Of a DNA stretch of 25,968 nt, positions 1,008-25,573 are shown in pieces. Within the stretch, counting starts at the first letter, position 1. The number at the start of each line of letters is the position of its first letter. A program made the translations under genes and the position numbers. Source of the stretch: a virus; the IMG/VR virus record IMGVR_UViG_3300026194_000306, one strand, 5' to 3'. The notes below the pieces were generated by a model. That model ran no database searches and was not told the origin of the DNA. It saw only the letters and a list, made by a program, of their open reading frames with translations.

Positions 1008-1179
1008 CCACCGCCGCAACTCCGGCACCCAGGACCACAAGCCCCAACTCAAAGTAGGATGAGATCGTGCAGTAGGATTGCACCATTATGATCGCAAGTC
1101 CAGCAGTTACAATTCCAAGCCCCATCCAGGACAGATAATTATCGAGACGCCCTTTTCTGAGTGCCTTATTATGTCCCAT
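943..1179 (-). CDS. Small two-TM membrane protein, last gene of the early array
   Basis: ORF track; two hydrophobic segments; junction motif B directly upstream. Confidence 0.65.
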   Translation of the reverse strand: MGHNKALRKGRLDNYLSWMGLGIVTAGLAIIMVQSYCTISSYFELGLVVLGAGVAAVVMGGIYHSSPGSCSCGPGRGP

Positions 1180-1182
1180 TTC

Positions 1183-1344
1183 TCATTCCTCTACCACATG
1201 AGACCGGATAGCCAGCGGTCGCAGATCCGGCGAGCAGTCATATGACTGGTGGACGAACGCGGCCTCCTCGGTCGAAAACCGGCGACCGCAGACCCGGCAC
1301 CGATATCCGGCCGGGAGTTCTTCGATCTTCAGTTTGGCTTTCAC
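1183..1344 (-). CDS. 53-aa Zn-finger protein (CRVC...H...C), copy 1
   Basis: Translated by hand from GTG at 1344: MKAKLKIEELPAGYRCRVCGRRFSTEEAAFVHQSYDCSPDLRPLAIRSHVVEE; GAGGTGA RBS. Confidence 0.75.
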   Translation of the reverse strand: MKAKLKIEELPAGYRCRVCGRRFSTEEAAFVHQSYDCSPDLRPLAIRSHVVEE

Positions 1345-1354
1345 TCTTCACCTC
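1256..1354. repeat. 99-bp exact direct repeat, copy 1 (copy 2 at 25870-25968)
   Basis: Base-by-base comparison. Confidence 0.95.
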
Positions 1355-1521
1355 TACGCACAGCCCCGCTGCCGGAACCAAGGGCAGCACCGTTGCGTCT
1401 GGTCATCATATTCTTGTCCTGGCTGATACCCACACAGAGCCCGTTTCGGTCGAGCAGCGCACCGCTTGCAGATGATACGTCCCGACACGGATGTCTCTCC
1501 CCAGCCACACAGGTTTTTCAT
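1354..1521 (-). CDS. Cys-rich small protein MKNLCGWGET..., paralog of 23886-24098
   Basis: AGGTGACAAC ATG start; ends inside junction motif A. Confidence 0.75.
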   Translation of the reverse strand: MKNLCGWGETSVSGRIICKRCAARPKRALCGYQPGQEYDDQTQRCCPWFRQRGCA

Positions 1522-1538
1522 GTTGTCACCTACGCACA

Positions 1539-1796
1539 TCAGTCCCAGTCTCCACCGTCGTTCAGGATTTTTGCCTGATCGACCATAAACCGGGGGTCCA
1601 CTCCACCGAACTCCGTCATTACTGTGCTTTCTCCCTTGTTTCCACATCTCATGATACAGAGAGACCCGCTTCCAGAGAAAATCCAGAATCCATATTTTCC
1701 CAACGTCTCCGCTGCCGATTTAAACCGGGTCACAGCGGCTTTCTCCTCTTTTGTCAGATCCAGGAGTGCTTTTACCTCATCGTCGGTATATTCCAT
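1539..1796 (-). CDS. Hypothetical protein MEYTDDEV...
   Basis: ORF track trimmed to the ATG after AGGTGACAAC. Confidence 0.75.
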   Translation of the reverse strand: MEYTDDEVKALLDLTKEEKAAVTRFKSAAETLGKYGFWIFSGSGSLCIMRCGNKGESTVMTEFGGVDPRFMVDQAKILNDGGDWD

Positions 1797-1804
1797 GTTG
1801 TCAC

Positions 1805-2146
1805 CTACGCACACCTGCGGATCTCGTCCTGCGGGGATAGGATCGCCGGGTCCGGGCAGTGATCGTCACATGAGTAGATCAGGCAGCTGGCAACCCCAGC
1901 CCCTCGGCACTCGATTTCCCACGTCGCTGGCCGGTGGCAACCCTTGGTGTCGCAGGTTTCGCAGACGCGCCCCTCCAGCGCGATCCTGTCGTGGATCAAC
2001 TCATGCACCCGGAGCAGCCCATCCCAATCTATGTTGAGCCGCCCCCCGGAGCCGTCCGGGTAGGTCTGCTGGATGCGGTATAGGGCCTGCTCCGGCGGGG
2101 CATCGGGCGCGCCCGCCTTGATAATCTCAAACGTTTCGTCGTCCAT
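1805..2146 (-). CDS. Hypothetical protein with C-terminal Zn finger (CETC...C...C...C..HC)
   Basis: ORF track; RBS within motif B. Confidence 0.75.
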   Translation of the reverse strand: MDDETFEIIKAGAPDAPPEQALYRIQQTYPDGSGGRLNIDWDGLLRVHELIHDRIALEGRVCETCDTKGCHRPATWEIECRGAGVASCLIYSCDDHCPDPAILSPQDEIRRCA

Positions 2147-2152
2147 CGTCCC

Positions 2153-2350
2153 TCACTCCTCTACCAGGGCATCAACCGCCCTGCGGTTACATTCGACACA
2201 TAGCCCCTTTCCGACCTCAATGAAAGTCATCGATGGGAACAAGTGTGCGGGGTAGACCTCGCGGGCCGCTGCCAGGCTGTCAGCCAGCAGATACCAACCG
2301 CCCCGGATGATCTCTTCATTCGCGGATTCAACGCGGAATACTGGTTTCAT
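2153..2350 (-). CDS. Small protein with CVEC motif, ends LVEE
   Basis: ORF track; motif B on both sides. Confidence 0.7.
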   Translation of the reverse strand: MKPVFRVESANEEIIRGGWYLLADSLAAAREVYPAHLFPSMTFIEVGKGLCVECNRRAVDALVEE

Positions 2351-2353
2351 CCT

Positions 2354-2497
2354 TCAGTCCTCTACCAGCCCGTTAAGCGGGCATTTTGAGCAGTCCGCAC
2401 CGCATGACCGGCAGTGCTTACCATCCCACGATCCGACGCTGCAATCCTTTTCCGGGCAACAGGAGCCTGGGAGGTGCCTGAGTGTTATTGTGTCCAT
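2354..2497 (-). CDS. 47-aa Cys-rich protein MDTITLRHLPGSCCPEKDCSVGSWDGKHCRSCGADCSKCPLNGLVED
   Basis: Translated by hand; bounded by motif B copies. Confidence 0.65.
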   Translation of the reverse strand: MDTITLRHLPGSCCPEKDCSVGSWDGKHCRSCGADCSKCPLNGLVED

Positions 2498-2508
2498 CTT
2501 CTACTCCT

Positions 2509-2634
2509 CTACCATCCATCGTTTCGAGGATCGTGCTCTTCCTGCTTCCAGGCCCATGCTTCTCTTAGGCAGTCTTCACAGTTCTTCGGGCATTTCGGGT
2601 TGCACCGCCGGCAACTGTTATCATTCTCGTCCAT
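2509..2634 (-). CDS. 41-aa Cys-rich protein MDENDNSCRRCNPKCPKNCEDCLREAWAWKQEEHDPRNDGW
   Basis: Translated by hand; bounded by motif B copies. Confidence 0.65.
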   Translation of the reverse strand: MDENDNSCRRCNPKCPKNCEDCLREAWAWKQEEHDPRNDGW

Positions 2635-2648
2635 CGTCCTTCACTCCT

Positions 2649-2903
2649 CTACCATCTCACTCTTCGGACCACTGATTGACGATGATGTTGTCTCCGCAGA
2701 TGTTCACGCACAGGAAGCCCTAATTCTTCCTCTCTTTTCTCCATCGCCTCATATTCATCTAAGGAGAACTGGATGAGGGTTTCCTGCATTCTCTTCAGCT
2801 GGTTAAATTTGGTGTAGTGCTTCTTCCACTCGTCATCGGAGTATGCTTTATGAAGAGATTCTGTATCCGAAACCCCCCCGTCAATATTGATTATTTTAGA
2901 CAT
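2649..2903 (-). CDS. Hypothetical charged helical protein MSKIINIDGG...
   Basis: ORF track trimmed to the ATG after GAGGTGAAG. Confidence 0.7.
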   Translation of the reverse strand: MSKIINIDGGVSDTESLHKAYSDDEWKKHYTKFNQLKRMQETLIQFSLDEYEAMEKREEELGLPVREHLRRQHHRQSVVRRVRW

Positions 2904-2927
2904 CTTCACCTCTACGCACAGGGATGA

Positions 2928-3155
2928 CTAGTCCTCGGGCCATTCGAGGATGGCCTCAATGTCAGTCACGGCCCGCCGGCACGCGGCCGAGGCAACCATC
3001 TCTTCCTCCCATCGCTCCAGGTCGCAATACTCTTCCCGGGCCGCTGCCCGGAGAGTGGGGTTGAGGAGGATGGCCCTCACGATCTGCTCAAGGTCGTCGT
3101 TGCTCCGCTTCAGGCGGGCGACGGCCTTCAAGTAGAGTTCGTCTTTCGGTCTCAT
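2928..3155 (-). CDS. Hypothetical helical protein
   Basis: ORF track; ATGA overlap with the upstream gene. Confidence 0.7.
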   Translation of the reverse strand: MRPKDELYLKAVARLKRSNDDLEQIVRAILLNPTLRAAAREEYCDLERWEEEMVASAACRRAVTDIEAILEWPED

Positions 3156-3484
3156 CGCGGCACGCTCCGGGCGTCGAGCTCTGATATTCGCGTCACCTTC
3201 AGATAGAGAGAGATGCCGTATTTCTTCTCAATCTCCCCTTCCCATGATGCGATGAGGGCGTTCAGACGGTCGAGATCGGGATCTTGGCCGCTGAGGGCGA
3301 GGGCGTATATGTCTACGGGGTTCGGGAAGTTCTCCGGGTCCGGCTCTGATGAGCCTTCGGGAGCTTCGTATTCGGCCATGTAGTCATGCCAGCCGGTCAC
3401 TACATCGATCACTTCGCTCCAGCTGTCAGTAGTATGATCGGTGATGCCGTCCGTAATGCGATACCAGATCCGTTCGTTTTCCAT
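3152..3484 (-). CDS. Acidic hypothetical protein
   Basis: ORF track; GGAGTGA RBS. Confidence 0.75.
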   Translation of the reverse strand: MENERIWYRITDGITDHTTDSWSEVIDVVTGWHDYMAEYEAPEGSSEPDPENFPNPVDIYALALSGQDPDLDRLNALIASWEGEIEKKYGISLYLKVTRISELDARSVPR

Positions 3485-3488
3485 CGTT

Positions 3489-3644
3489 TCACTCCTTCAA
3501 GCGGGCTTCCCAGTCTTGGCAACTCATGTGCCACAACATATCCAGCTCATGCTTCCGACACACGATCCATTCAGGGCACCCCGACCAAGCACACGGAGCA
3601 CTGTGGTTGCAGGTTTTACAGGTTTCCTTTTCATTCCAAGCCAT
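3489..3644 (-). CDS. Small Cys-rich protein MAWNEKETCKTCNH...
   Basis: ORF track trimmed to the ATG after GAGGATGG; CxxC pattern. Confidence 0.6.
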   Translation of the reverse strand: MAWNEKETCKTCNHSAPCAWSGCPEWIVCRKHELDMLWHMSCQDWEARLKE

Positions 3645-3666
3645 GTTTCCATCCTCAATTAAAACG

Positions 3667-3831
3667 TCAATCCTCCGGCACCGCTCCGCGCTCCGGGCAG
3701 AGGCAGAGGTGCTGATCACAGTCCCAGGCGGCCCGGTCGGGGCAGCCGCACCGGAAATGATAGTCGATCGCGGCGATCCAGGTGCCTTCCCTGACCTCGC
3801 GGACCTCGTGGGGGCAGCGGCGGGGCGTCAC
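3667..3831 (-). CDS. Small Cys-rich protein (GTG start)
   Basis: GTGA overlap with the upstream gene; Cys-rich. Confidence 0.5.
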   Translation of the reverse strand: MTPRRCPHEVREVREGTWIAAIDYHFRCGCPDRAAWDCDQHLCLCPERGAVPED

Positions 3832-4235
3832 TCCTGGCACCTCCCGTAAAGGGTGTTCACCCAGCTCCGGACCCACCGGATCATGTGCCGCAGGCCGCCG
3901 GCGCCCCTCGGCCGGGCCACCGCCTGAGTTATCGCCACGGCGGGCATCATGAGGGCGATCTCTTCCAGGGGAGAGCGGGGGGTCGGGTCAATCTCGATCG
4001 GGCCGAACGGGGTGTATACCGTGATGGGTTCCGGTTCTGGCGCAGGCTCCGGGAAGATGTTGATGGTGATTACCCGGGGCCGGGGGGCCGGTCGCTGCGG
4101 TTTCGTGACGGGTTGTAACTTCCTCCGCTCCCGCATTGCCTGGAGGTTCAGGTCTCCGGGACAGTGCGGGGGCGGGACGATCGCTAGGGGCTGGACGTGG
4201 TGGTACTCGAGCCGGGGAGCGGGCTTGTACTGCAT
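3828..4235 (-). CDS. Pro-rich hypothetical protein MQYKPAP...
   Basis: ORF track trimmed to the TGATG overlap; GGAGGTG RBS. Confidence 0.65.
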   Translation of the reverse strand: MQYKPAPRLEYHHVQPLAIVPPPHCPGDLNLQAMRERRKLQPVTKPQRPAPRPRVITINIFPEPAPEPEPITVYTPFGPIEIDPTPRSPLEEIALMMPAVAITQAVARPRGAGGLRHMIRWVRSWVNTLYGRCQE

Positions 4236-4558
4236 CAGGCACCTCCGTCCCCGGTCAGACCGCGGGCGAGGTTCTCCCATCGGTGATCGCCTTCCTCTTC
4301 GTATGCCCCGGCGGTGTGCGCCCGGATCGTGTCCCGGCGCCGGTGCGAGAACCGGAAGTAGTGGTCCGGGCGGTTGCGGGCGGCCTGCTTGCACTGTTCG
4401 CTACAGAAGAGCAAGCGGCGCTTCCGGGTGCGGTCGTATGCCTCAACGGCTGCGGTGTATCTGAGGGGCTTGCCGCAGTAGTGGCAGGTTAGAGAGGGCT
4501 GTGTGCCCTGCTCCTGCGTTTCTGGCAGGGGTTCGATACTCGGATCATGTCTTTGCAT
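4235..4558 (-). CDS. TRASH/MYM-like Zn-finger protein (CHYC...FCSEQC)
   Basis: Motif CxxC-x22-FCSxxC; start after GGAGG. Confidence 0.7.
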   Translation of the reverse strand: MQRHDPSIEPLPETQEQGTQPSLTCHYCGKPLRYTAAVEAYDRTRKRRLLFCSEQCKQAARNRPDHYFRFSHRRRDTIRAHTAGAYEEEGDHRWENLARGLTGDGGA

Positions 4559-5777
4559 GTCTTCCTCCGTTGCCGCCCGTTGTGGTGGGTTGGCAGGGGC
4601 GGTTTTCGTGCCCGGTTTGACCGGGAACAAGGTTGGTCAGAACGAGGTCCCAGAGTTGTTCGTTCCGCTTCATGACGGCGGCGAGAATCTGGGTCACGTT
4701 GTCGAGCTTCTGCTGCATGGTGATGCCGCCGCAGACGGCCGCCTCGATGCTGTTGAGCTGGGCGGTGAGCGGCTGGATGGCCTGGGGGATCGCGGCGGTG
4801 ATGTGGTCGGCGATGGTGCTGTCGAGCCGGTGCATCTGGAAGATGGCCCGGTCGAGGGCGGTAGCGCGGGCGGGGTCGAGGGTCTCGATCTCGGCGTGGT
4901 AGGGGTCGCCGTTGCTCTCGGGGCTGTGGTCGATCCAGAAGCCGGGGAGAGCGGTTTGTTCGGCGGCGTGCGGGGCGTCGGTGCAGAAGGTGAAGCCGTA
5001 GTGGGTTTTCGTGGGCTGGCGGCCGTGCGTGACTTCGAGGTATACGCCGAAGCGTCGCTGCTTCTCGACGAAGAGGGCGATAGCGTCCTCGATGGCCTTC
5101 CGGGTGAGTTCTTCGGCGTCCTGGATGCTCTCGGCGGTGACGGTCTGCCCTTTGTCGGGGTAGGCGGTGAGGGTGCCGGGGTGGACGTCGATGGTGACGT
5201 TCGGGGCGGTGCCTTTGCCGGGGTAGAAGAATTTGTGGCGGGCGCCGCCTCGCATGTTCCAGCTCTTTTCGTAGCCGGTGCGTGGGTCGGTGGCGACGGG
5301 GCCGGATTGTCTGAGGATGGTGTAGGACCGGCGGATGTTGTGGACGCGGCAGCTGGTGTACTGGATGTAGTCGGTCTCCCGGTCGATCTGTTTTCTGAGG
5401 GCCGGGTTTACTGAGTAGGTGGCGTTGTAGGGGCTGCCTCGCGAGGGTTCGATTGTGGGGGAGATGCCGTTCTTCCGGGCCTGCTCGGCGGCGGCTTCGG
5501 CTTTCTCCCGGGTGAGGTAGTCCTCTCGATAGGGGCGGTCGCCGAGGCGGTAGGTGAGTGTCCAGGCGCGACCGTTTTTCTGGAGGAGGTTGAGTTTCTG
5601 GAATCGTTTGACGATCTGATGGATGTACTGCCGGGAGACGTTGAGCCTGCGCCCGATCTCGGCCTGGGTGTAGTCGCCGAGGGCGAGGAGTTTGAGGGCC
5701 CGGGTCTGGAGGGGGTTCAATCGCTGGACGTAGGCGAGCGCCGCGAGATCCTCGATGGTCTGCTGGCGCTCGGACAT
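4545..5777 (-). CDS. 410-aa winged-helix DNA-binding protein, candidate replication initiator
   Basis: N-terminal HTH (YTQAEIGRRLNVSRQYIHQIVKRF); C-terminal coiled-coil-like region; largest early gene. The initiator role is inference. Confidence 0.7.
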   Translation of the reverse strand: MSERQQTIEDLAALAYVQRLNPLQTRALKLLALGDYTQAEIGRRLNVSRQYIHQIVKRFQKLNLLQKNGRAWTLTYRLGDRPYREDYLTREKAEAAAEQARKNGISPTIEPSRGSPYNATYSVNPALRKQIDRETDYIQYTSCRVHNIRRSYTILRQSGPVATDPRTGYEKSWNMRGGARHKFFYPGKGTAPNVTIDVHPGTLTAYPDKGQTVTAESIQDAEELTRKAIEDAIALFVEKQRRFGVYLEVTHGRQPTKTHYGFTFCTDAPHAAEQTALPGFWIDHSPESNGDPYHAEIETLDPARATALDRAIFQMHRLDSTIADHITAAIPQAIQPLTAQLNSIEAAVCGGITMQQKLDNVTQILAAVMKRNEQLWDLVLTNLVPGQTGHENRPCQPTTTGGNGGRHAKT

Positions 5778-5780
5778 GGG

Positions 5781-5858
5781 TTAGACGGCCTCCAGGGTGG
5801 TTGCGCCGGGGAGTGCCCCGGCGATCGGCGCCGGGAGGTCGTCGGTCATGAAACTCAT
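5781..5858 (-). CDS. Possible 25-aa peptide MSFMTDDLPAPIAGALPGATTLEAV
   Basis: ATGA overlap; fills the gap and carries the GGAGG RBS of the next gene. Confidence 0.35.
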   Translation of the reverse strand: MSFMTDDLPAPIAGALPGATTLEAV

Positions 5859-8654: not shown

Positions 8655-8753
8655 GATGTTCACTGGGCATACATCATATATATTGTTTGCTATATCAATG
8701 CCCCGGCATACATCAGATTATTGGTTTCCCTTATAGAGGATCAAGTGATTTCG
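8655..8753. promoter_or_regulatory. Divergent promoter with an 11-bp direct repeat operator
   Basis: GGCATACATCA at 8666-8676 and 8705-8715; TATA-like tracts. Confidence 0.7.
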
Positions 8754-10537: not shown

Positions 10538-10903
10538 TTAGAACTGTTTGTTCAGCAGGATCTGTTCGCTGCCGTCGCTGAAGTGCCCGACGACGAGGAA
10601 CCGGGCCGCTTTCCCGCCGGGGATTACCGAGACGTTCCCTACGGTGAAGTTGTCGGTCTGCGATGCCTTCTCGGTCCCGTTGACGCTGTACGTGATCTCC
10701 ACTAACTGCGCCAGCCCGGATCCGCCCTGAAGGATGGACTCGATACCGTCCGGCACTAACTTTGCGGAGAGCATGACGGTCTTCGTCGTTTCTACGTCGC
10801 CGGCCATGTTCATCACGAAACGGCCGCCAGGATAACGGTGATGGCGACCATCAGGATCACCCCGATCACGGGAGGAAACTGCTTCATCGTTTTTGATGGA
10901 CAT
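10538..10903 (-). CDS. Archaeal type IV pilin (DUF1628-like) with its hydrophobic helix shifted out of frame by two compensating indels
   Basis: MSIKNDEAVS start; the alternative frame over about 10817-10872 reads [18 protein letters not shown]; pilin-like globular domain ending FSDGSEQILLNKQF. Confidence 0.85.
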   Translation of the reverse strand: MSIKNDEAVSSRDRGDPDGRHHRYPGGRFVMNMAGDVETTKTVMLSAKLVPDGIESILQGGSGLAQLVEITYSVNGTEKASQTDNFTVGNVSVIPGGKAARFLVVGHFSDGSEQILLNKQF

Positions 10904-16422: not shown

Positions 16423-17921
16423 CGCTTCCTCCGCTTTGCGGGTTTCTTTCTGGGGGTGGGGGAGGGGGAGAGGCCGAGGAACTCACGCGGGGTGGCGACG
16501 CGGAGGTTCTCCCAGAACGCGGTCTCGGCTTTGCTGCCGCGGCCGCCCTTCTTCTTTCTCTTCGTGGGGTCGCGGTCCCGGCGCCGGGTCTGGTCGATGA
16601 AGGGGGTCTCGAAGGGGAACTCGTTGGGGAAGCTCGGTGGGTATGGGTAGTCTACGGGGTTCTGGAGCGGGTTCTGGAAGACGGTGGTGTCGGGGTATGC
16701 GGTCTCGGGGATGGTGATGTCAGTGGTGGTGGAGGTGGGGATCGCCATAGAGAGCGGGGCGGTCATCGGGGCGAAGGTAGACCGGGCGGCGAAGAGGTCG
16801 GCGGTCAGGTCGGCGGTTGCGTCCCGGGTGCCGGCTTCGGCGAGGTTGAGTGTCTTCGTCCAGGTGGCTATGTCGGGTTTGGTGGCGGTCTCCGGCCGGG
16901 GCGTGAAGATGTAGCGGACGGTCTCTTCGCCGGGGTGGATGGCCGGGACTTCCGGGGACGGGGCCTGAATGAAGGGGGTGTCTTCGTCGGCGACGAACCC
17001 CCGGGGGCCGGTCGGGAAGACGTTGGGGAAGGCGTCCGGGAAGGCGGAGGGGCCGCCGAACGGGGACGGGCTGGGGATCGCTTCGGTGGCGTGGAACCGG
17101 GCTTCTGTCCGGGGACGGGTGAGGACCTCGGCGCCGCCGGGGCTCCATGCGTCGGCACGGGGCTGGATCTCGGCGAGGTCGTTTCTGAGGGTGATCTCGC
17201 GGGTGCCGATCGGGGTGGTGGGTCCCTGAAGCACGAGCCGGGAGACGCGGTCGCCGGTGCCGAGTTCGGCCTGCCCGGGGTCCCAGGTGGAGTGTGGGAT
17301 GGGGCCGGGACCGAGGACGTAGGGGTTGCGGCCGCCGCCGATCTCGGGTCCGGGGCGGCCGGTGGGGAACTGCGGGCCGGGGTCCGGGAAGGCGGGGCCG
17401 ATCTCGTTGGCGAGGGCGATCGGGAGCATGGTGCCGGCGGCGGTTGCGGCCGCTGTGGCGCCCTGCTGGACGACTGCGGGGGCGGTGCGGGTGGCGAGTC
17501 CCAGAGCGGCTCCGCCGCCGGTGCGGATGATGCCGGACGCGGCCGGACCTGCTGCGGCGACGGCCCCGCCGCCACCGAGGAGGGCAGCACCGCCGGCGAC
17601 GCCGGTGATCAGGCTGGCGCCGATGAGACCGCCCTTCACCATCTCCATGGGGCGGGCGGCGAACTCTTCCCGGGCCCGGGGGATCGCGGGGTTGATGGCC
17701 CGGGCGGGGGCGGTGAGGAGGTCCATGCGGGAGCCGACGATGTGGCCGGCGAAGGCAGGACCGGCCCGGAGAGCGATGTCTAACGGAGTGGAGCGCGTGG
17801 GCGTGGGGGCCGGGGTCGGCGTGGTCTGGGGAGTCGGTCGGAGCTGGGGCTGCTGCTGTGGGCGGCGGGAGGTTGCCGCCCGTACGAGGTGAGGAGCCAG
17901 GGGGATGAGGAGCGGTAACAT
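16419..17921 (-). CDS. 500-aa Pro/Thr/Ala-rich protein with a strongly basic C-terminus, putative internal virion protein
   Basis: ORF track; GGAGG RBS; ends ...RRRDRDPTKRKKKGGRG...RKKPAKRRKR. Confidence 0.75.
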   Translation of the reverse strand: MLPLLIPLAPHLVRAATSRRPQQQPQLRPTPQTTPTPAPTPTRSTPLDIALRAGPAFAGHIVGSRMDLLTAPARAINPAIPRAREEFAARPMEMVKGGLIGASLITGVAGGAALLGGGGAVAAAGPAASGIIRTGGGAALGLATRTAPAVVQQGATAAATAAGTMLPIALANEIGPAFPDPGPQFPTGRPGPEIGGGRNPYVLGPGPIPHSTWDPGQAELGTGDRVSRLVLQGPTTPIGTREITLRNDLAEIQPRADAWSPGGAEVLTRPRTEARFHATEAIPSPSPFGGPSAFPDAFPNVFPTGPRGFVADEDTPFIQAPSPEVPAIHPGEETVRYIFTPRPETATKPDIATWTKTLNLAEAGTRDATADLTADLFAARSTFAPMTAPLSMAIPTSTTTDITIPETAYPDTTVFQNPLQNPVDYPYPPSFPNEFPFETPFIDQTRRRDRDPTKRKKKGGRGSKAETAFWENLRVATPREFLGLSPSPTPRKKPAKRRKR

Positions 17922-18638
17922 CTACGTCTTCCCTCCGAAGAGGTAGATAACTCCCATGATCAGGCAGATCCCGATCTCCACCGCGACGAGGGCCTTCATC
18001 CAGCCGGGCCAGGAGCCCGTTTTGAGGTCGTCGGTCTCCTCGGCGACGCGCTCGGCGATGTGCCCTTCGAGGTCGCCGGCGCCGATGTGCGGGAGGTATC
18101 GCTCTATCTCGTAGAGCGGGACCTCCGTGACTGCCGGCATCAGGATCGGGTCGGCAATCTTCCCGGCTTTGATGAGGTCGTAGAGGTCTTTGTAGTCGGC
18201 GATCTGCTCGCTCTCGGTGTGGGTCTCGTTCCAGTCGAGGATGGCGGCCTTCACGGCGGCCTGGAGCTTCGGGTCGGTGGCGATCCCCCAGGTGTCGAGG
18301 AAGATCTTGGCGTTGACGGCGCCGAAGCGGTGAGAGTCGGGGGAACGCTGGATCCACGAGAGCGGGAGGCCGACGGCGTTGAACACGCCGGCAACGTAGT
18401 CCATGGCATAGAACCGCATCCGGCCGCTCTTGAGGCAGACGATACCGAGGTCGGTGTTGGTGCGGGAGGCCCGGAAGTAGCCGGAGACAGGCCCCATGGT
18501 CCACCAGTACCAGATCCAGAGGGCGTTGCTGAAGAGGATGACGAGGCCGAGCACTACGAAGCCCCAGATGAACCAGGGAAGGCCGAGGATCATTCCGCCG
18601 ACCTCGGCGCCGGTTGGAGTGACAGTTATGGTTGACAT
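17922..18638 (-). CDS. Membrane protein with N- and C-terminal TMs
   Basis: ORF track; GAGGT RBS. Confidence 0.8.
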   Translation of the reverse strand: MSTITVTPTGAEVGGMILGLPWFIWGFVVLGLVILFSNALWIWYWWTMGPVSGYFRASRTNTDLGIVCLKSGRMRFYAMDYVAGVFNAVGLPLSWIQRSPDSHRFGAVNAKIFLDTWGIATDPKLQAAVKAAILDWNETHTESEQIADYKDLYDLIKAGKIADPILMPAVTEVPLYEIERYLPHIGAGDLEGHIAERVAEETDDLKTGSWPGWMKALVAVEIGICLIMGVIYLFGGKT

Positions 18639-18641
18639 GAG

Positions 18642-19127
18642 TTAACCTCGCTTGAGGAAGGAGAGGAAGCCGCCGCCGTCGTTCCGGGGCGGGAGGGGGC
18701 GGTCGTCCCGCAGGGTCTGGGTCAGGCGGTTCTCGTTGAGGGCGTCCCGCTCCCGGCTGTGCCGGGTGTAGCCGATGGATTTTCCTGCCAGGATGTCGCA
18801 GAAGGCGAGTTTCGCCATCCGCTGCTGGAGGTAGTCGTCGGCGTCCCAGGTGGCGACACGGAGGATGCTGGTGGTGGCCCGCCGGAACTTGCGGTGCGCT
18901 TCGGGGGTCGGGATGTTCGTGAGTTCGACGTGGCGGGCGACGGCCCCGGAGAAGAGCCAGAGGTCTTCCAGGGTGCCGCCGTCTGGGATGTCGGGGTCGA
19001 GGAGCATTGAGAGGGACTGCTCGGCGATGGAGGGGCCGCTCTGGGGGAGCGGGCGGTTCGGGTCGTTCACTCGCCGGACCAGGGCTTCGTAGTCTTCCGC
19101 AGATACTTCTACAGGCATGTGTTTCAC
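18642..19127 (-). CDS. Hypothetical morphogenesis protein
   Basis: ORF track; GAGGTGA RBS; ATGA overlap. Confidence 0.75.
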   Translation of the reverse strand: MKHMPVEVSAEDYEALVRRVNDPNRPLPQSGPSIAEQSLSMLLDPDIPDGGTLEDLWLFSGAVARHVELTNIPTPEAHRKFRRATTSILRVATWDADDYLQQRMAKLAFCDILAGKSIGYTRHSRERDALNENRLTQTLRDDRPLPPRNDGGGFLSFLKRG

Positions 19128-19606
19128 CTCAGTGGGGGCATTTCGCCGGCTTCCATCAGCTTCGCGTCCCGGATGGGGCGGAAGTAGTCTTCCCAGATCA
19201 CCCGGATCATGTTGACGACGCTGATCACGGTGATGAGCAGGAGGAGATATGGGAGGTAGGGCGGATGGGTGACGATTTCGACGGGGACGACGTAGATCGC
19301 GCCGTCGATGACTTCGATATGCGTGGTGGGGAAGGCGATGGCGGTGGAGAGGTAAGCGGCGGCCGCTGAGAAGACGAATGCCAGGAGAGCCCAGAGGTCG
19401 TGAGCGCTGATGCCGGTCCAGAGCGAGAGGAAGAGGAAGATGAACGGGGCGATGGCGAGCGGGAGCCAGATCTGGAACGGGAGGTATGCGACGTCAGCGG
19501 GGAGGATGGTGGTTGTGTTCGTGGCGGTGACGTTGACGGCGGCGGCTGGCGCGATAAGGAGGAGGAGTGTGAGAACGAAGAGGGGGAAAATAGGTCGGAG
19601 GTGCAT
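19124..19606 (-). CDS. Multi-pass membrane protein with a signal peptide
   Basis: ORF track; GGAGG RBS. Confidence 0.8.
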   Translation of the reverse strand: MHLRPIFPLFVLTLLLLIAPAAAVNVTATNTTTILPADVAYLPFQIWLPLAIAPFIFLFLSLWTGISAHDLWALLAFVFSAAAAYLSTAIAFPTTHIEVIDGAIYVVPVEIVTHPPYLPYLLLLITVISVVNMIRVIWEDYFRPIRDAKLMEAGEMPPLR

Positions 19607-19621
19607 GTGATGCCTCCGGGC

Positions 19622-19975
19622 CTACTTGTTCCGCGGCGTGAACAGGAACAGCACACCGAGGATACCGGCCGCTGCCATGATGATCAGCACGATCGCCAGG
19701 AGGCCGTAACCGCTCTGGGTCGTGGTCGCGAGCGACTGCTGGAGCGTGTACCAGGCCGAAGACTCGTTGAGTGCCGGCGTGCTGGCTTCGACGTTTGCCA
19801 GGATGATAACGCCCATGGCCATCACGATCGCCGTGACGATGAAGCCGAGAACCAGGTTGACGTTACCGTCTTCGTTGTCGATGCGGAGCTTCTGGAATGC
19901 GGCACGAGCGCCGCAGGTCTGGACGACCGCGAGCTGCTCCCGGGCGTATGCGGTGTACTTCTTGATCAGGGACAT
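19622..19975 (-). CDS. Putative major capsid protein, spindle-virus-type helical hairpin
   Basis: Charged leader ending NEDG, two hydrophobic helices, loop with N-glycosylation sequon NES, own promoter and GAGGTGA RBS. Confidence 0.65.
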   Translation of the reverse strand: MSLIKKYTAYAREQLAVVQTCGARAAFQKLRIDNEDGNVNLVLGFIVTAIVMAMGVIILANVEASTPALNESSAWYTLQQSLATTTQSGYGLLAIVLIIMAAAGILGVLFLFTPRNK

Positions 19976-20042
19976 CAGATATCACCTCGCATAGTTAGAA
20001 ATGAAGATATATAGGTATATATAGATGATTTAGAACTATATT
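19976..20042 (-). promoter_or_regulatory. AT-rich promoter of the capsid gene cluster
   Basis: TATATACCTATATAT on the minus strand upstream of the RBS. Confidence 0.6.
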
Positions 20043-21140
20043 CTAATTAGATGCGACGGCGCACGGGGCGGCGCCGGATCTGATGTCTGTTTTATCCGGG
20101 GGCTCTGCATCTTCGGTTTTTATCACCGGCGGCTGGTTGGGGATGCGTGTGAACGGCATCCGGCCGAACCGCTCTTTTGGCTCTTCGAGGATGGCCCAGC
20201 CGGCCCGGGGGAGGGTGCCGATGAGGCGGGGGTTTACCATGCTCACGCGGGGTTTCGGGCGGCTGCCCCGGAGCCAGATGTAATAGGAGAGCCGGTCGGT
20301 GACCCGGTAATCTACGTCGTTGGTGTCCTGGGTGCCGATGTTCATGGAGACGTTGTTTTTCCGGAATGAGATCATCGTCTCGGAGAACCAGCCGATCAGA
20401 TGCCAGAGATCCCCGCGGGAGTTGGAGGGGAAGACCTGGTGCGCCTCGTCGAGGTCGATAAGGAAGAACTCGTCCCGGTATTTGATGCGGATGAGGGTTT
20501 CGAGAAACTCGAACCACCAGATCGGCGAGGGGGCGCGGATGGGGCCGTCCGGCCGTTTCCGGGTGGAGAGGAGGTTGTTCGCGGCGATCCGGTCGAGGAC
20601 GTCTTTGGGGAGGTAATACTGTTTCGGCTCGTAGACTACGTTGACGCCGCCGCGGAGCAGGTTGTCATAGAGTTCTTCGGGAGAACTGTAGTAGGTCAGC
20701 TCTTCGAGCGGTTTGAACTGGATCCGGTATTTCTTCTGGTCGCGTTCTTCGGTCCAGATCCGGTGGTCTTTGTAGAAGACGTGGACGCGGAGAGGTTTGA
20801 CGACCTGGGCTTCGGGGAAGGACTCCCGGAAGTTCTCCGGGATCAGGCAGTTCCAGTGGTCGTGTGCCAGGCCGCGGTGAATGACTGTTTCGGGGTAGCG
20901 GGTCGCCCGCGGGCTGTCCTTCGAGTGGGGCGCGGGGATGCAGGTGGCGGCGGCGGCCAGCTGCAGCATGAGGGTGCTCTTGCCGCTGCCGAACTTCCCG
21001 ACCAGGCCGGTCATGGTGCCGCCGTATGCGGCTACCCCGTCGTCGTGGGTGACGATCTCGTAGGCCATGCGGCGGCCCTTGGCGGCCGAGACCCGTTTGA
21101 GGGCTTCGGAGAGTTGCTCCTCGGCGACGGTGGCGGTCAT
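20043..21140 (-). CDS. P-loop ATPase of the FtsK/HerA superfamily (Zot/pI- or A32-like morphogenesis ATPase)
   Basis: Walker A GKFGSGKST, Walker B LIDLDEAH, FRK...IGTQ, D.DYRV pattern. Confidence 0.85.
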   Translation of the reverse strand: MTATVAEEQLSEALKRVSAAKGRRMAYEIVTHDDGVAAYGGTMTGLVGKFGSGKSTLMLQLAAAATCIPAPHSKDSPRATRYPETVIHRGLAHDHWNCLIPENFRESFPEAQVVKPLRVHVFYKDHRIWTEERDQKKYRIQFKPLEELTYYSSPEELYDNLLRGGVNVVYEPKQYYLPKDVLDRIAANNLLSTRKRPDGPIRAPSPIWWFEFLETLIRIKYRDEFFLIDLDEAHQVFPSNSRGDLWHLIGWFSETMISFRKNNVSMNIGTQDTNDVDYRVTDRLSYYIWLRGSRPKPRVSMVNPRLIGTLPRAGWAILEEPKERFGRMPFTRIPNQPPVIKTEDAEPPDKTDIRSGAAPCAVASN

Positions 21141-21526
21141 CTCTCGGCGTCCTCCTCTGCGGGCTTCTTCCGGTTCATGAAGAGGTCGGAGAAGTATTGG
21201 TCTACGGACTGGATGCTGATGAGGTCTTCTTCGAGGCAGATGGTGACGAAGTAGTCGAGGATATCGGAGACCTTGGCGATGACCTGCGGCCAGGCGGTCT
21301 CGTCGGCGGCAAACGCGATGGCCTGGTTATCCCATGCCTGACGCCAGGCGAGGAAATTCTGGAGGAACTCCGGCGGCAACTTTCCGCGCTTTTTTTTCAG
21401 GGCGGCTGATGAGAGCGTCATCACGGAGCGGCAGAGCCGGAGCGATTGCGCCGGTTCTGTGCTGATGGCGGTGAGGACGATCACCCGGCCGAGGGCCTCT
21501 TTGTAGTCGTTGGGGATTGCTGCCAT
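21137..21526 (-). CDS. Hypothetical helical protein coupled to the ATPase
   Basis: ORF track; ATGA overlap; TATA upstream. Confidence 0.75.
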   Translation of the reverse strand: MAAIPNDYKEALGRVIVLTAISTEPAQSLRLCRSVMTLSSAALKKKRGKLPPEFLQNFLAWRQAWDNQAIAFAADETAWPQVIAKVSDILDYFVTICLEEDLISIQSVDQYFSDLFMNRKKPAEEDAER

Positions 21527-21682
21527 GATACTATATAGATGTTGGCCCCTGCTATATATACCGTTGCTGACCTATGGCGCACATTAAGCGAAGGAAAAAG
21601 GGAAGAACCGGGGAGCGGCGGCGGCGCGGCGCGGCATGGGCTTAAAAAGTCGATCAGAATCTAAAAAGAAGAGAAAAGAGGA

Positions 21683-22180
21683 TCAGCGTTTGCGCTTGCT
21701 GGTCTTGCTGGACTTGCGCTTCTTCGGGGCTGAGGCCGAGCCGCCGAAGGGATCGTAGTTGTCGATGCTGCCGAAGTTGCCGAGGTTGCCGAGCCCGGAG
21801 GATCCGCCGGCACCGCCGAAGGCGTCGAAGCTCGAGTTGAAGTTCTGGCCGGCGTCGGCGAGCGTGCCGAGGAACCCGGAGGACTGTTGCCGGGCCTTCT
21901 GTTCTTTGGGGGAGAACTTCCCGATCCGGGGGTTGGTTTCGAACCTGGCGAGGGTCTCGGACGCCTTCTCGACGGACTCCTCTGAGTTCAGGTTGACGTC
22001 GATGTAGCGGTCTCCCTGGGGGAGGATGTAGCGGCCGGAAGTGGTCGGGTCCCGGCGGACGTTGTGCCGCTTGATGAGCTCGGCTTCCCGGGCGGACCGG
22101 GTGCGGGCGGCGGTGGCTTCCTCCTCCCGGCGGGCTCGGTGCTCACCGGCCCAGTTGCGGATATTTCCTAGGATACCCAT
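21683..22180 (-). CDS. Gly/Ser-rich protein with a basic C-terminal tail, putative DNA-binding virion protein
   Basis: ORF track; ends APKKRKSSKTSKRKR. Confidence 0.7.
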   Translation of the reverse strand: MGILGNIRNWAGEHRARREEEATAARTRSAREAELIKRHNVRRDPTTSGRYILPQGDRYIDVNLNSEESVEKASETLARFETNPRIGKFSPKEQKARQQSSGFLGTLADAGQNFNSSFDAFGGAGGSSGLGNLGNFGSIDNYDPFGGSASAPKKRKSSKTSKRKR

Positions 22181-22318
22181 ACTTGAATATGTGGACTATA
22201 GAGACTATTAATTTTCTCTATAGTTGCCCGGATCGGAGCCGTCCGGGACGGCTACGGCATCCTTAAAGAGGTTCCGCGACCTATAGTTGTGGCGCAGAGA
22301 TTTTGATAGGGCCATACT

Positions 22319-22381
22319 AGTGTAGTGGTCACAATCTCAACGCACCCCCGTAGAGTGATACGAGATTGTGACCACTACACT
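22319..22381. repeat. Perfect 20-bp inverted repeat with a 23-nt spacer, upstream of the integrase
   Basis: AGTGTAGTGGTCACAATCTC 22319-22338 / GAGATTGTGACCACTACACT 22362-22381. Confidence 0.95.
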
Positions 22382-22410
22382 TATGGGGCTCTAGAGGCAT
22401 TCTCCTTTTC

Positions 22411-23682
22411 ATGAGCACGTTTCGTTACCGCGACCGGCCGGAGTACCGGGCGTCTATCCTCCGGCAGGCGGTTGATGACGGGAGGCTGTCGAGCCGGGAG
22501 AGTGATCTGATACAACAGTTCCTGGCAGAGCGCCGGGCGAAGAAGGGGCTCTCGCAGGGAAGGTTGTCCCTTTACACCCATCACCTGATCAGGATCCGGG
22601 ACTTCGTGCCGTGTGCCTACCCGGAGATGGCTGCCCTGGACTTGATGATGTGCGTGAACAGTATCTCGGACGGGGTTTCCCAGAAGGGGGTGCCGTTTTC
22701 GCAGAACACGAAGCACGACTATATCCTGACTCTGAAGATTTTTACGCGGTGGATGGTCGAGCGGGGGATCGTCGATATCCCTCTGTCCGAGGTGAAGGAG
22801 ATTGATGTTCCCCGGCAGCCGCGGGCGACGAAGACCGCGGACGACATGCTATCCGACAAGGAGATCCTTGTTGTGATGGGGGCCTGCGGGAACTCGAAGG
22901 AGCGGGCGATGGTCTCGACGGTGTATGATGCGGCGTTGCGGATCGAGGAACTTCAGGATCTCCGGTGGGGGCGGATAGCACGGCTGAAGCACGGCGTGGC
23001 GATCACGACGGATAAGAAGACCGGATACCAAAGGCGGATCCCCTGCACGGTGTGCGGGTCGTACCTGACGGCCTGGCGGAACGATTACCCGGGGGACGCG
23101 ACGGGGGAGAACTTCGTGTTCATCACGAAGGACCTGGAGCCGTACATGTATAGCGGGTTCCAGTACGTCCTGAAGAAGATCCGGAAGCGGCTGAGGGACC
23201 AGGGGCACGGGGAGATCGCGGATAAGTTAGGCTGGCACGTCCTGCGACATGCCCGACTGACGGAGTTTGTCCGCCGGGGGATGTCGGAGACGACGCTCGG
23301 TCAGATCGGGTGGGGGCATCGCTCCTCGATGATCGAGTGCTACGTACACATGAGCAGGGACGATATCGAACGGGAGGTGCTGGCGATTGCCGGTATCAAG
23401 GACGATCAGGCCGAGCGCCCGACGCCGGTGTTCGTGCCCGGGGTCTGCCCGGTGTGTGCATGCACGGATGTCCCGCCGACCGCGTTGTACTGTCCGTCGT
23501 GCCGGTCGCCGCTGACGGAGGAGGCACGGGAGGAGGCTGAGCGGCTGGACCGGGAGACGTCTGACCTTGAGATCCTGCGGGTGCTGCAGGACCCGGTGCA
23601 GCGGGAGTTGTTCCTGTCGATTGTGGATCGGATGCGGAGGGAGGAGGAGGCGCGGGAGGCGCAGGAGGGGGTGAAAGAGTAA
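22411..23682 (+). CDS. Tyrosine recombinase/integrase with an N-terminal CB domain and a C-terminal double Zn ribbon
   Basis: DAALRIEE (R), KKT (K), HVLRH, GWGH, ECYVH (Y); CPVC...CPSC. Confidence 0.93.
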   Translation: MSTFRYRDRPEYRASILRQAVDDGRLSSRESDLIQQFLAERRAKKGLSQGRLSLYTHHLIRIRDFVPCAYPEMAALDLMMCVNSISDGVSQKGVPFSQNTKHDYILTLKIFTRWMVERGIVDIPLSEVKEIDVPRQPRATKTADDMLSDKEILVVMGACGNSKERAMVSTVYDAALRIEELQDLRWGRIARLKHGVAITTDKKTGYQRRIPCTVCGSYLTAWRNDYPGDATGENFVFITKDLEPYMYSGFQYVLKKIRKRLRDQGHGEIADKLGWHVLRHARLTEFVRRGMSETTLGQIGWGHRSSMIECYVHMSRDDIEREVLAIAGIKDDQAERPTPVFVPGVCPVCACTDVPPTALYCPSCRSPLTEEAREEAERLDRETSDLEILRVLQDPVQRELFLSIVDRMRREEEAREAQEGVKE

Positions 23683-23694
23683 CTTTTATCTCCT

Positions 23695-23770
23695 GGCGGC
23701 CCTACATCAGAGTATCTCTTCTTTGACCTCCTCTTTTGGCAGGGTAGTTTTAGGGTTCTGTTTTGTGGTA
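23695..23770 (+). terminator. T-rich putative archaeal terminator after the integrase
   Basis: Oligo-T tracts downstream of the stop codon. Confidence 0.4.
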
Positions 23771-23875
23771 AAAGTGAACCATTGTGATCACGCTGTACCC
23801 GTCCTCGTGAGCGTTTCCCGGTGCCGCACCCGGCCCCCGGTGCGAAAGGGTTAAGTTTTAATAAAAGTGAACCAT
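23769..23875 (+). promoter_or_regulatory. 14-bp direct repeat TAAAAGTGAACCAT flanking the promoter of the second recombinase operon
   Basis: Copies at 23769-23782 and 23862-23875; TTTTAATAAA TATA-like box. Confidence 0.65.
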
Positions 23876-23885
23876 AGTATCTTCT

Positions 23886-24098
23886 ATGGAAAACAGATGT
23901 GGGTGGGGTGAAACAGACCGATCCGGAATGGTCGTGTGCAAGCGAGGTGCCCCATGCGCAACCCTAGAGTACTGCGGGCGCGATCTTGAGGACCCGGATG
24001 CCCCGGCGTCTCAACGCTATTGTAAGTGGTTTATCGAGAGAGGGGCACCATCAGTTCTGCGGTGTGGGCATCTCGTCGGGAGAAGGCTGGTAGAATGA
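23886..24098 (+). CDS. Cys-rich small protein MENRCGWGET..., paralog of 1354-1521
   Basis: Shared M.N.CGWGET..SG...CKR.A......CG...QR.C.WF..RG. Confidence 0.75.
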   Translation: MENRCGWGETDRSGMVVCKRGAPCATLEYCGRDLEDPDAPASQRYCKWFIERGAPSVLRCGHLVGRRLVE

Positions 24099-24673
24099 GT
24101 GAACCGCTCCTGATCCGGTCCGAGAAGGGGAATACCGTCCGGGTCTTCACGCCGGCAGAGGTGGACGCCCTGACCGCGGCGATCAAGCAGCCACACCACC
24201 GGACCCTCTTCAATGTCCTGCTGTGGACGGGGATGCGATACGTCGAGGTGCAGCGGCTACACGAGCACCCGGAGTACGTGCTTCAGGCACGGGGGTATAT
24301 CGACCTGCCCTTTGATGCGGCGAGGAAGAAGAAGGGGAAGCGGACCCCGCCACAGAGGCAGGTGCCGGTCCCGCAGCAGCTCGCCGGGGAGCTGCCGTAC
24401 TTCTTCAGGAACCCGGCCCCGCCCACGGTCCAGGTGTGGGGAAGGAACCTGAAGCGGTGGGCGGTCGCGGCCGGCATCGGGGATGTGGGGGTCTCGCCGA
24501 AGAGCACCAGGAAGACGATCGAGTCATGGATGGTGGTGATTGATGTGCCGATGAATAAGGTGTGCCTCCGGCAGGGGCATGACTCGGTGACGTCGCTGGG
24601 GTATTATCAGAACATGGCGTTCACCTACGATGAGGTGTCTGAGATCCGCCGGCGGCTGGCGTCGTGGGTGTGA
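24095..24673 (+). CDS. Short tyrosine recombinase, catalytic domain only (192 aa)
   Basis: WTGMRYVE (R), KSTRKT (H replaced by K in HxxR), QGH, LGYY (Y); start at the ATGA overlap; no N-terminal CB domain. Confidence 0.85.
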   Translation: MSEPLLIRSEKGNTVRVFTPAEVDALTAAIKQPHHRTLFNVLLWTGMRYVEVQRLHEHPEYVLQARGYIDLPFDAARKKKGKRTPPQRQVPVPQQLAGELPYFFRNPAPPTVQVWGRNLKRWAVAAGIGDVGVSPKSTRKTIESWMVVIDVPMNKVCLRQGHDSVTSLGYYQNMAFTYDEVSEIRRRLASWV

Positions 24674-24692
24674 AGACCCCGCCGGCCCGGGT

Positions 24693-25413
24693 TGTCAAGC
24701 AGTTGACGACCCCTGTTCTTTACTCGTGTCAAGTGCTTGACGGCGCTTGACATCCCTTTTTCGCTGTGCTTGCACCGTTGCCGCATCGGGGCTATTTCCG
24801 GCCCGCTAACACCCCCCATGTTTTTACTTGACACGATGTATGGATATTGCCGAGGGGCCGGCGGAGGGGGTGAGGGGGGAAATTGTGAGAATGGGGCGGG
24901 TTTGGACCGAACGCAACGCCGGGACCGGCCCGGATCCGCGTGGGGGAGAGGGTCAGAACGAGGGTGTTTCACTCCGGCCGGGAAGGGTGATCTACGGGAA
25001 TGTCAAGTGCCGTAACATCTCCCGCTTGACAACGAGTAAACTACCCTGTTAATGTTACTCCGTTTCAGAATCGGAGCAAATTTAACAGCATCTTTACTTG
25101 ACAACTTTTTGCTTGACACATATATGTGTTTGGAGTGTCAAGTGATATGGATGATAGATTTTCCCGGATCGAGAAATGCGGCACGGTGAGGCGTAAACTA
25201 GACGGATTCAGGATATTATATCGCAGCGAGATAAAAATGGATGTGTGAAAACGATCCGACTTGGGCCCAGGTAGATGCACCCTGTCGTTTCACCAGAGCG
25301 TCAGGTTGACATTTCTGGACTTGCTGTAAGCCGAGCGTTAACAGGTGTTAGCATATAAGGAGTTTATAAAAAAGAGGGCGGGGGCCTTGTCGTTGTGCGG
25401 GGAGAATGTCAAG
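24693..25413. repeat. Cluster of TGTCAAG/CTTGACA boxes (iteron-like), candidate replication origin
   Basis: Perfect copies at 24693, 24727, 24746, 24827, 25001, 25025, 25097, 25112, 25136, 25407; 1-2 mismatch copies at 24702, 24736, 25305. Confidence 0.85.
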
Positions 25414-25573
25414 GTTGGAACGCTCGATACTCTCTGACGAGGAGCCGGCACTTATCACGTAACCATATGATGAGGAAGCCCACGATCACCACCGGCAGCA
25501 AAAGCAGGTGGGCAAGGTCTTGTACCTCGTCTCTCTCCCCGATTTTATGAAGGATGAATCTTAGGAGTTTCAT
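25409..25573 (-). CDS. 54-aa single-TM protein MKLLRFILHKIGERDEVQDLAHLLLLPVVIVGFLIIWLRDK...
   Basis: Translated by hand; ATGA overlap with the upstream gene. Confidence 0.55.
   Translation of the reverse strand: MKLLRFILHKIGERDEVQDLAHLLLLPVVIVGFLIIWLRDKCRLLVREYRAFQP

Follow-up and report, generated by a model that had tools for sequence, protein, structure and literature searches.

Known Systems of Gene Shuffling

The closest described analogue of the locus presented here is the modular shuffling mediated by promoter-early stem-loops (PeSLs) in T4-type phages (Arbiol et al. 2010, PMC2839356; Comeau et al. 2014, PMC4122927), to which the boundary-sequence model proposed earlier (PMC3029335) may be added. 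The locus is an array of small gene cassettes joined by short repeated linkers, located in a viral DNA stretch of 25,968 nucleotides (nt), record IMGVR_UViG_3300026194_000306 of IMG/VR, which in its whole length is referred to as the window. PeSLs are short repeated expression signals bounding small, nonessential open reading frames (ORFs) of unknown function in hyperplastic regions, a trait which the linkers share. Similarly, where near-identical genomes differ by an indel or a replacement, the repeats form its limits in both cases. The exchange in phages is ascribed to recombination between the repeats (PMC2839356), and mini-circles have been shown for PeSLs. PeSLs act at the transcription level, as they combine a sigma-70 promoter with a terminator stem-loop, and they belong to bacterial myoviruses. 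On the contrary, the linker of the window appears by its sequence to be a translation-level signal of 7–20 nt (a stop codon plus a Shine-Dalgarno, SD, element) with neither TATA-like box nor stem-loop, and it is found in archaeal viruses and plasmids, across unrelated backbones.

Short boundary sequences, also named linkers, were proposed by the modular theory for homologous module swapping in lambdoid phages (PMC3029335). The linkers described here are alike in this respect, but they mark almost all boundaries within the variable array and at the same time serve as a stop/SD signal. In halovirus HF2, conserved intergenic repeats (29–58 bp, AT-rich) were experimentally shown to be promoters, and their position and orientation are kept among relatives (PMC8707807). 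The linkers are likewise conserved intergenic repeats of an archaeal virus, but they are purine-rich, devoid of TATA-like boxes and located between putatively translationally coupled ORFs.

The array also resembles integrons in its single-ORF cassettes, which share one orientation, are mostly promoterless, vary in content with rapid turnover, and have a 7-nt conserved core at each boundary. The attC sites of integrons are imperfect inverted repeats of ~57–141 bp (R''/L''...L'/R'), which fold as single strands, and an IntI-type tyrosine integrase with attI and a Pc promoter adjoins the cassettes. No attC-like folded palindrome was found at the junctions of the array and, judged by the position and strand of the two PF00589 genes of the window, no IntI-type integrase lies beside it. 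Further differences are the recombinase type, which varies among relatives, and the boundary element, which here carries translation signals. Shufflons (Rci/sfx) differ by their inverted sites, which cause inversions, as the cores of the linkers are nearly all in one direction. No description of this motif or array was found in the literature searched.

The array behaves as a minimal gene-cassette shuffling system and is no integron. With moderate confidence, we consider that a stop-plus-SD intercistronic linker doubles as short homology for modular shuffling.

The Linkers of the Array

Ten small ORFs of 75, 84, 41, 47, 65, 113, 85, 55, 53, and 78 amino acids (aa) follow each other on the minus strand, from 3155 down to 943, and every gene of the whole array region lies on this strand (table 1). 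All nine junctions between these ORFs (2921 to 1177) carry one of two motifs, that is, TGTGCGTAG (type A) or TGGTAGAGGA (type B), and one more linker is located at 25839–25819. Type A has five copies, exclusively on the minus strand (plus coordinates 1354, 1530, 1805, 2912, and 25831), against 0.10 expected, and none of 100 dinucleotide shuffles reaches this number. Type B also has five copies, likewise on one strand only (plus coordinates 1187, 2157, 2358, 2505, and 2645), against 0.05 expected, again with no shuffle reaching five. The initial annotation, by which nine consecutive junctions carry either motif, is confirmed, and both motifs are far above chance. The window has a G+C content of 61%.

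An exact 20-mer is found both at 1519–1538 and at 1794–1813, as previously annotated. A second exact repeat had been given as an 18-mer; the repeat is real but its length is 19 nt (1345–1363 and 2903–2921). The ORFs between the motifs (41–113 aa) show no paralogy at E<1e-4, and no Pfam or PHROG family was detected above threshold for the cassettes of the window. DNA methylase and VapB-like antitoxin genes are present as cassettes in relatives. Their presence would fit the anti-defence or host-takeover role suggested by the initial annotation, but does not count as evidence for it.

The motifs are read in different frames. TGG TAG provides the ending W*, xTG GTA GAG GAx TGA the endings VEE* or VED*, and TGT GCG TAG the ending CA*. 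The motif was initially described as fused to the stop codon, which holds for most junctions with the exception of 2912, where the upstream stop precedes the motif by 8 nt (TAG, 2928–2930), and of 1530, where TGA overlaps its first T. At 25831 the ending is not CA*: the frame of the zinc-finger paralogue continues across the motif to give ...KTVRR* and ends at the TGA of GGTGA. Since the motifs are read in several frames or stand after a stop, their conservation is at the nucleotide and not at the protein level. A C-terminal protein motif (LVEE) was ruled out, as the same nucleotides serve as W* in 21 of 66 junctions.

These junctions derive from a collection of TGGTAGA contexts, 66 of the 80 distinct ones being located between an ORF stop and an ORF start (with an ORF of at least 30 codons stopping). 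The stops used are TAG within the core (21), TGA or TAG at +11 (29), and TAG at +14 (9), and the start codon is mostly placed 10–20 nt from the beginning of the core. Information content is close to zero upstream of the core and graded downstream of it, with TGGTAGAGGAGTGAAAGATG as the consensus. In 17 loci, TGGTAGA is found 109 times in forward and 6 times in reverse orientation. If TGTGCGTAG is split into TG+TGC+GTAG, it appears to be TGGTAG with three extra bases.

The downstream half of the linker falls into spacer families, that is, AGGAGTGAAAG, AGGAGTAGAAG, AGGAACGATAGC, AAAAGGAGTAGATC, A[AG]AACAGGAAGGNGG, and AGAGGTGAAAG, with GTGACAAC and AGGTGAAGA in type A. The SD elements are GGAG, GAGGTGA, or AGGTGA. 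The 3′ end of the 16S rRNA of G021, a related genome of the host order (GGAUCACCUCCU / GGATCACCTCCT), is complementary to the SD half of the linkers. The junctions have the features of translationally coupled genes (an SD matching the 16S 3′ end, 5–10 nt ahead of the start and overlapping or next to the upstream stop), and such coupling is the predicted role of this half. The TGGTA and TGTGCG halves showed no pairing with the 16S rRNA or its 3′ flank. Extended 16S pairing of the non-SD half was rejected, as there is no complement and duplex energies are no better than those of the reversed control.

No sign of structure was detected at the junctions. Compared with shuffles, 81 windows of 100 nt around the junctions gain no folding stability (mean z = −0.14), and mid-ORF controls are more stable (−0.32). 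Only 13 of 93 cores have the inverse core (TCTACC) in the 200 nt on either side, and there is neither dyad symmetry nor a hairpin at the junctions. Rfam gave no match at E<=1 and no tRNA genes were found. A likeness of GTGCG to the 5′ end of group II introns (GUGYG) was dropped because the cassettes are too small and have no Rfam match.

TATA-like boxes near the operon are restricted to ~8673–8699 and 753–833, with none in the linkers. On the coding strand neither a TATA-like box nor a T-run occurs from ~8670 to 943, the first T-run being at 820–825. This is an indication that the region may be transcribed as one long transcript.

Two irregular forms of the linker were observed. In L042 (14257–14670), a 137-aa homologue of the 113-aa cassette runs 27 codons past a degenerate linker (CTGGTAGAAAACCGCAAC...), which looks like a fossil junction having lost its stop and SD. 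Tandem cores placed 7–11 nt apart (e.g., TGGTAGAAAGATGGTAGAGG) are found in L189 (3109–3130) and L043 (16153–16175); imprecise exchange may have left them behind, or they may represent empty sites.

Exchange of Cassettes among Related Loci

Homologues of the 410-aa protein of the window on metagenomic contigs (76–92% identity) provided the loci L042 to L047, and the 64 homologous clusters of the 113-aa cassette provided L187 to L195 and L206 to L210. Loci L042 and L043 are 99.987% identical, with 2 differences in 15,963 bp. Their identity stops at ...GGCTGGTAGAGGA[G/C]TGAAAG (...CTGGTAGAGGA[G/C]TGAAAG), inside one linker and just before the start codon, and past this breakpoint both the genes and the recombinase module differ. 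In the case of L187 (the 26,070-bp ENA contig k141_235259), there are no mismatches to the window over 8,542 nt (window 17416–25957, L187 2364–10905). The identical stretch starts with the third nucleotide of the zinc-finger copy 2 start codon, with complete difference upstream, and despite these identical nucleotides the array of L187 contains a different gene set.

Single cassettes are also inserted or deleted. In L189 and L190 the order is [113-aa gene]-TGTGCGTAGGTGACAACATG-[55-aa gene], and between these two genes the window has an extra 85-aa gene and a second, identical 20-mer. The homology on the left spans the first linker and that on the right begins at the second. In L211/L212, the 85-aa cassette follows a type-B linker and is the final gene ahead of an integrase.

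The window and L042 have just three array genes in common, and their blocks of DNA homology run from the ATG to the 5′ edge of the core. As the 54-aa gene (25409–25573) is the third array gene in L042, gene order differs between the two. A fixed order in relatives, which the initial annotation had named as evidence against exchange, was looked for and is not what the relatives display.

The 113-aa family has a type A linker in the window and type B elsewhere, and is joined to at least six spacer variants. Its C-termini after ...EIRR change with the adjoining linker and include CA*, LVEE*, LVED*, LVER*, LVEK*, LS*, MVENRKVD*, and others, and two database members start with MCVGDNM, which is the type-A2 linker read as protein. 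These variable termini indicate that the same gene is preceded and followed by different linker types across genomes. The linker of a 70-aa gene (MENVTANK...) is of type A2 in L206 but of type B in L187. The spacer moves with the downstream gene.

In 76 distinct contexts from 17 loci, the sequences of relatives cease to be identical at the edges of TGGTAGA, the core of 7 nt. When only the upstream side is shared (n = 52), identity is lost at +7 in 21 pairs and at +7 to +14 in 45; when only the downstream side is shared (n = 17), it is lost at −1 in 13. Indels and replacements, but no inversions, were seen among the rearrangements. The linkers (<=20 nt) are shorter than the k-mers of the assembler (contigs named k141/k119), and the breakpoints are thus unlikely to be assembly chimeras. 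The proposal that portable cassettes are exchanged at the junction motifs is supported, as exchange boundaries lie at these motifs.

Table 1. Linkers and Genes of the Array, with Coordinates in the Window
Feature	Position	Strand	Details
Linker, type A1	2901–2920	minus	TGTGCGTAG + AGGTGAAG + ATG; in the spacer after the TAG (2928–2930) of the 75-aa gene
Linker, type B	2632–2654	minus	TGGTAGAGGAGTGAAGGACG + ATG; upstream gene ends W* (TAG within core)
Linker, type B	2495–2514	minus	TGGTAGAGGAGTAGAAG + ATG; upstream gene ends W*
Linker, type B	2348–2367	minus	TGGTAGAGGACTGAAGG + ATG; core read by the upstream gene as LVED* (TGA stop)
Linker, type B	2144–2166	minus	TGGTAGAGGAGTGAGGGACG + ATG; upstream gene ends LVEE*
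Linker, type A2	1794–1813	minus	TGTGCGTAGGTGACAAC + ATG; upstream 113-aa gene ends CA*; left copy of the 20-mer pair bracketing the 85-aa cassette
Linker, type A2	1519–1538	minus	Identical 20-mer, right copy of the pair; upstream stop TGA overlaps the first T of the motif
Linker, type A1	1342–1362	minus	TGTGCGTAG + AGGTGAAGA + GTG start; upstream gene ends CA*
Linker, type B	1177–1196	minus	TGGTAGAGGAATGAGAA + ATG; upstream zinc-finger gene ends VVEE*
Linker, type A2 variant	25819–25839	minus	TGTGCGTAGGTGACAAGA + ATG; zinc-finger copy 2 upstream reads TVRR* (TGA)
75-aa gene, head of the variable array	2928–3155	minus	Kept in L042–L045 (91% aa); DNA homology stops at its last sense codons
84-aa cassette	2649–2903	minus	ATG at 2903; not in L042/L043
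41-aa Cys-rich cassette	2509–2634	minus	Not in L042/L043
47-aa Cys-rich cassette	2354–2497	minus	Not in L042/L043
65-aa cassette	2153–2350	minus	Not in L042/L043
113-aa cassette	1805–2146	minus	Widespread family, 64 protein clusters
85-aa cassette	1539–1796	minus	Single-cassette insertion relative to L189/L190
55-aa Cys-rich cassette	1354–1521	minus	Common to L189 (97% nt)
53-aa C2H2-like zinc-finger cassette, copy 1	1183–1344	minus	Also in L042 (92% aa), there behind a type-B linker
78-aa predicted membrane protein, last array gene	943–1179	minus	T6 run at 820–825 beyond it
43-aa zinc-finger cassette, copy 2	25827–25958	minus	25834–25968 is 91% identical to 1220–1354 over 135 nt
54-aa gene	25409–25573	minus	Homologue at L042 12532–12691, third array gene there, ending in a type-B linker

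The Virus, Its Host, and Its Relatives

A 365-aa protein of the window has Pyrococcus abyssi virus 1 (PAV1) as its only match in the phage collection, at the protein level, and no DNA match to the window was found there. The window also encodes a CAP-domain protein, an adhesin-like 857-aa protein, and two tyrosine integrases, which are the PF00589 genes at 22411–23682 and 24026–24673, on the opposite strand from the array and away from its head. Closure of the virus into a circle at 1/25968 is plausible. Upstream of the array, the 410-aa protein (4545–5777) has an N-terminal MarR/sigma-70 region-4-like winged helix. A sequence search against the PDB found the N-terminal winged helix only. The C-terminal part of ~330 aa matches nothing, yet proviruses in several complete genomes of Methanomicrobiales have conserved it.

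The genome G232 (Methanomicrobiales) carries, in its array of clustered regularly interspaced short palindromic repeats (CRISPR), a spacer with a perfect 34-nt match to the window (21662–21695; spacer at G232:C4:5404–5437). The repeat of this CRISPR array is ATTTCAATCCACGCACCCGCGAAGGGTGCGAC, with 17 repeats in the stretch read. A Methanoregulaceae metagenome-assembled genome (MAG) encodes a distant relative of the 410-aa helix-turn-helix (HTH) protein. By this relative and the spacer, the host is a Methanomicrobiales methanogen. Jointly with the shuffling reading, and with the same moderate confidence, the array is best explained as the accessory genes at the distal end of a long polycistronic early operon, carried by a PAV1-like virus that is probably spindle-shaped and infects a Methanomicrobiales methanogen.

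The relatives belong to several types of backbone: window-like with two tyrosine integrases (L043 and L187), window-like with a serine resolvase and ParB module (L042/L045), with a rolling-circle Rep of PF23343 (L192), and with 50% G+C and TROVE and MT-A70 genes (L195). L206 to L210 represent a further type. Every type has TGGTAGA followed by a purine-rich SD at its small-gene junctions, on the same (coding) strand, and type A linkers are also found in L187, L189, L190, and L206. The linkers are restricted to the variable arrays. In L042, for instance, the motif is missing from the conserved-gene junctions that directly follow the 410-aa gene, and from 12700 on nearly every junction has it. 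The position of the array varies, as in L192 it is located directly after rep (1409–5826, including a C5 DNA methylase cassette) and in window-like viruses after the 410-aa winged-HTH gene.

The near-identical genomes L042 and L043 have different integration modules (17359–19492 and 17277–19823, respectively). That of L042/L045 consists of a serine resolvase and a ParB_N/DUF488 gene, and L043 has two tyrosine integrases like the window.

The possibility that the motif is a host signal was considered. In 401 Methanomicrobiales genomes, TGGTAGAGGAG has at most 10 copies per genome, not above the reversed-sequence control. In G232, with its perfect spacer, there are 3 copies versus 15 for the control and, in the Methanoregulaceae MAG, GGTAGAGGAG has 7 copies versus 11. 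A common context of host gene starts, the other observation named beforehand as contrary to exchange, is therefore ruled out for the Methanomicrobiales genomes searched. Distant proviruses in complete genomes of this order (G040, G004, G235, G064, G052, and G021, the latter with ~70% nt identity) lack the motifs, and the k-mers that recur in them belong to tandem repeats rather than to junction signals.

Scans of IMG/VR with TGTGCGTAGRGGTGA and TGGTAGAGGAGTGA gave single, chance-level matches only and no contig with several motifs, and the search of IMG/VR for related loci with the 410-aa protein found nothing. In the scan of metagenome contigs, most were too short to extend into the array.

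In a different part of the window (~10819–10894, ~75 nt), a pilin-like N-terminal region is matched by well over 100 of the 401 Methanomicrobiales genomes at 80–89% identity. By its sequence, this virus gene seems to carry a class III signal/pilin N-terminus resembling that of hosts.

Proposed Mechanism of Exchange

Between two ORFs of the array, a linker of 15–25 nt has at its 5′ end a constant core (TGGTAGA or, as a variant, TGTGCGTAG), followed by a strong SD and the start codon. It closes two of the three incoming frames (by TAG in the core and by TGA or TAG 8–11 nt later) and would open the next ORF. The same linker, in the same orientation, stands at nearly every accessory ORF boundary of several cocirculating viruses and plasmids and is the only sequence which unrelated cassettes have in common. 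In the mechanism that we favor, this sole shared sequence would allow general recombination through short homology or microhomology, with no dedicated enzyme, to move whole ORFs while leaving expression undamaged. During coinfection, or with resident proviruses and plasmids, such recombination would insert, delete, replace, and reorder single ORFs, giving arrays that are intact and expressed. Cassettes that keep the core would stay exchangeable, and this may itself maintain the core.

Several points weigh against this mechanism. The core of 7 nt is very short for classical homologous recombination. Many of the inferred exchanges are located right at the edges of the core, a pattern that a site-specific enzyme would also leave. 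The non-SD half (TGGTA, TGTGCG) does not pair with the 16S rRNA and is not needed for the SD. In addition, collecting the contexts by exact TGGTAGA fixes the core positions by construction, and the switch points were counted over pairs, which are non-independent events.

The strongest alternative, though an unlikely one, is a dedicated site-specific cassette system, that is, a minimal analogue of integrons in which a viral or host recombinase acts at the asymmetric TGGTAGA (and at TGTGCGTAG), ORFs move as small circles, and crossover occurs in the core. Exchange boundaries on both sides of the core, the direct orientation of the cores, and the indel of a single cassette between identical linkers are all in line with such a system, as are the non-SD half, which is conserved without a translational explanation, and the confinement of the cores to variable arrays with no enrichment in genomes of the host order. 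However, no recombinase is common to the motif-bearing elements, although the contigs are partial and this absence is not proven: the window, L043, and L187 have two tyrosine integrases, L042/L045 a serine resolvase, and L192 a rolling-circle Rep. The dyad symmetry, hairpin, and inverse core usual for sites of tyrosine or serine recombinases are also missing. Furthermore, the tandem or degenerate cores (L189 3109/3120 and L043 16153/16160) and the loss of identity over +7 to +22 look imprecise.

The interpretation of the initial annotation is consequently retained in part. Portable cassettes with boundaries at the motifs are upheld, but not a dedicated integron-like mechanism in which one of the two tyrosine recombinases would act, as the same linkers occur with a serine resolvase (L042/L045), a rolling-circle Rep (L192), and other backbones (L195, L206–L210), at junctions with no hairpin, dyad symmetry, or inverse core. 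The site-specific alternative is kept mainly because the conservation of TGGTA and TGTGCG is unexplained. In its specific form it is slightly less likely again: the TGGTAGA core (with TGTGCGTAG as a variant longer by 3 nt) would be the recognition and crossover site of a recombinase which moves single ORFs as circles among methanogen viruses and plasmids. If true, this would represent a hairpin-less, integron-like gene capture native to archaeal mobile elements, with translation signals inside the recombination site.

It is rather improbable that the linker is purely an expression signal (termination plus reinitiation) with no role in recombination, the genes being joined by illegitimate recombination anywhere and selected for intactness. 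The canonical SD at normal spacing and the stops in two frames agree with this explanation, and breakpoints at gene boundaries are expected also under the mycobacteriophage model of illegitimate recombination plus selection (PMC3029335). Illegitimate joins would nevertheless create new junctions; instead, the core is kept at nearly every variable junction and the flanks change. The TGGTA/TGTGCG half lies outside the SD, and an indel placed between identical 20-mers is what exchange through repeats leaves behind. In the same virus genomes, the junctions of core genes have ordinary, nonrepeated SD contexts, which argues that the linker core is not needed for expression in this host.

Least probable of all is an RNA-level site on the polycistronic mRNA (a signal for processing or cleavage, or for the binding of a regulator) kept by selection with recombination being incidental. 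The strand-specific and frame-independent core just 5′ of each SD and the unexplained non-SD half would suit it, but there is no Rfam match, no conserved secondary structure relative to the mid-ORF controls, and no candidate RNA-binding protein or nuclease common to the elements.

Significance

Linker-driven modular exchange in viruses is an old idea without clear examples, and most mosaic boundaries of phages show no such sequence. In this hypervariable accessory array, almost every boundary carries a linker, which seems to act at the translation level. The linker is common to unrelated replicons of one host group, and the array turns over while kilobases of the backbone stay identical. TGGTAGA plus an SD, on the same strand every 150–400 nt, offers a sequence tag by which such gene pools may be found in metagenomes, and the linkers could provide a natural template for building expression cassettes that are portable among methanogens. 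For the archaeal viruses themselves, shuffling at such linkers provides a concrete, testable model of how their pools of small accessory genes may be renewed.

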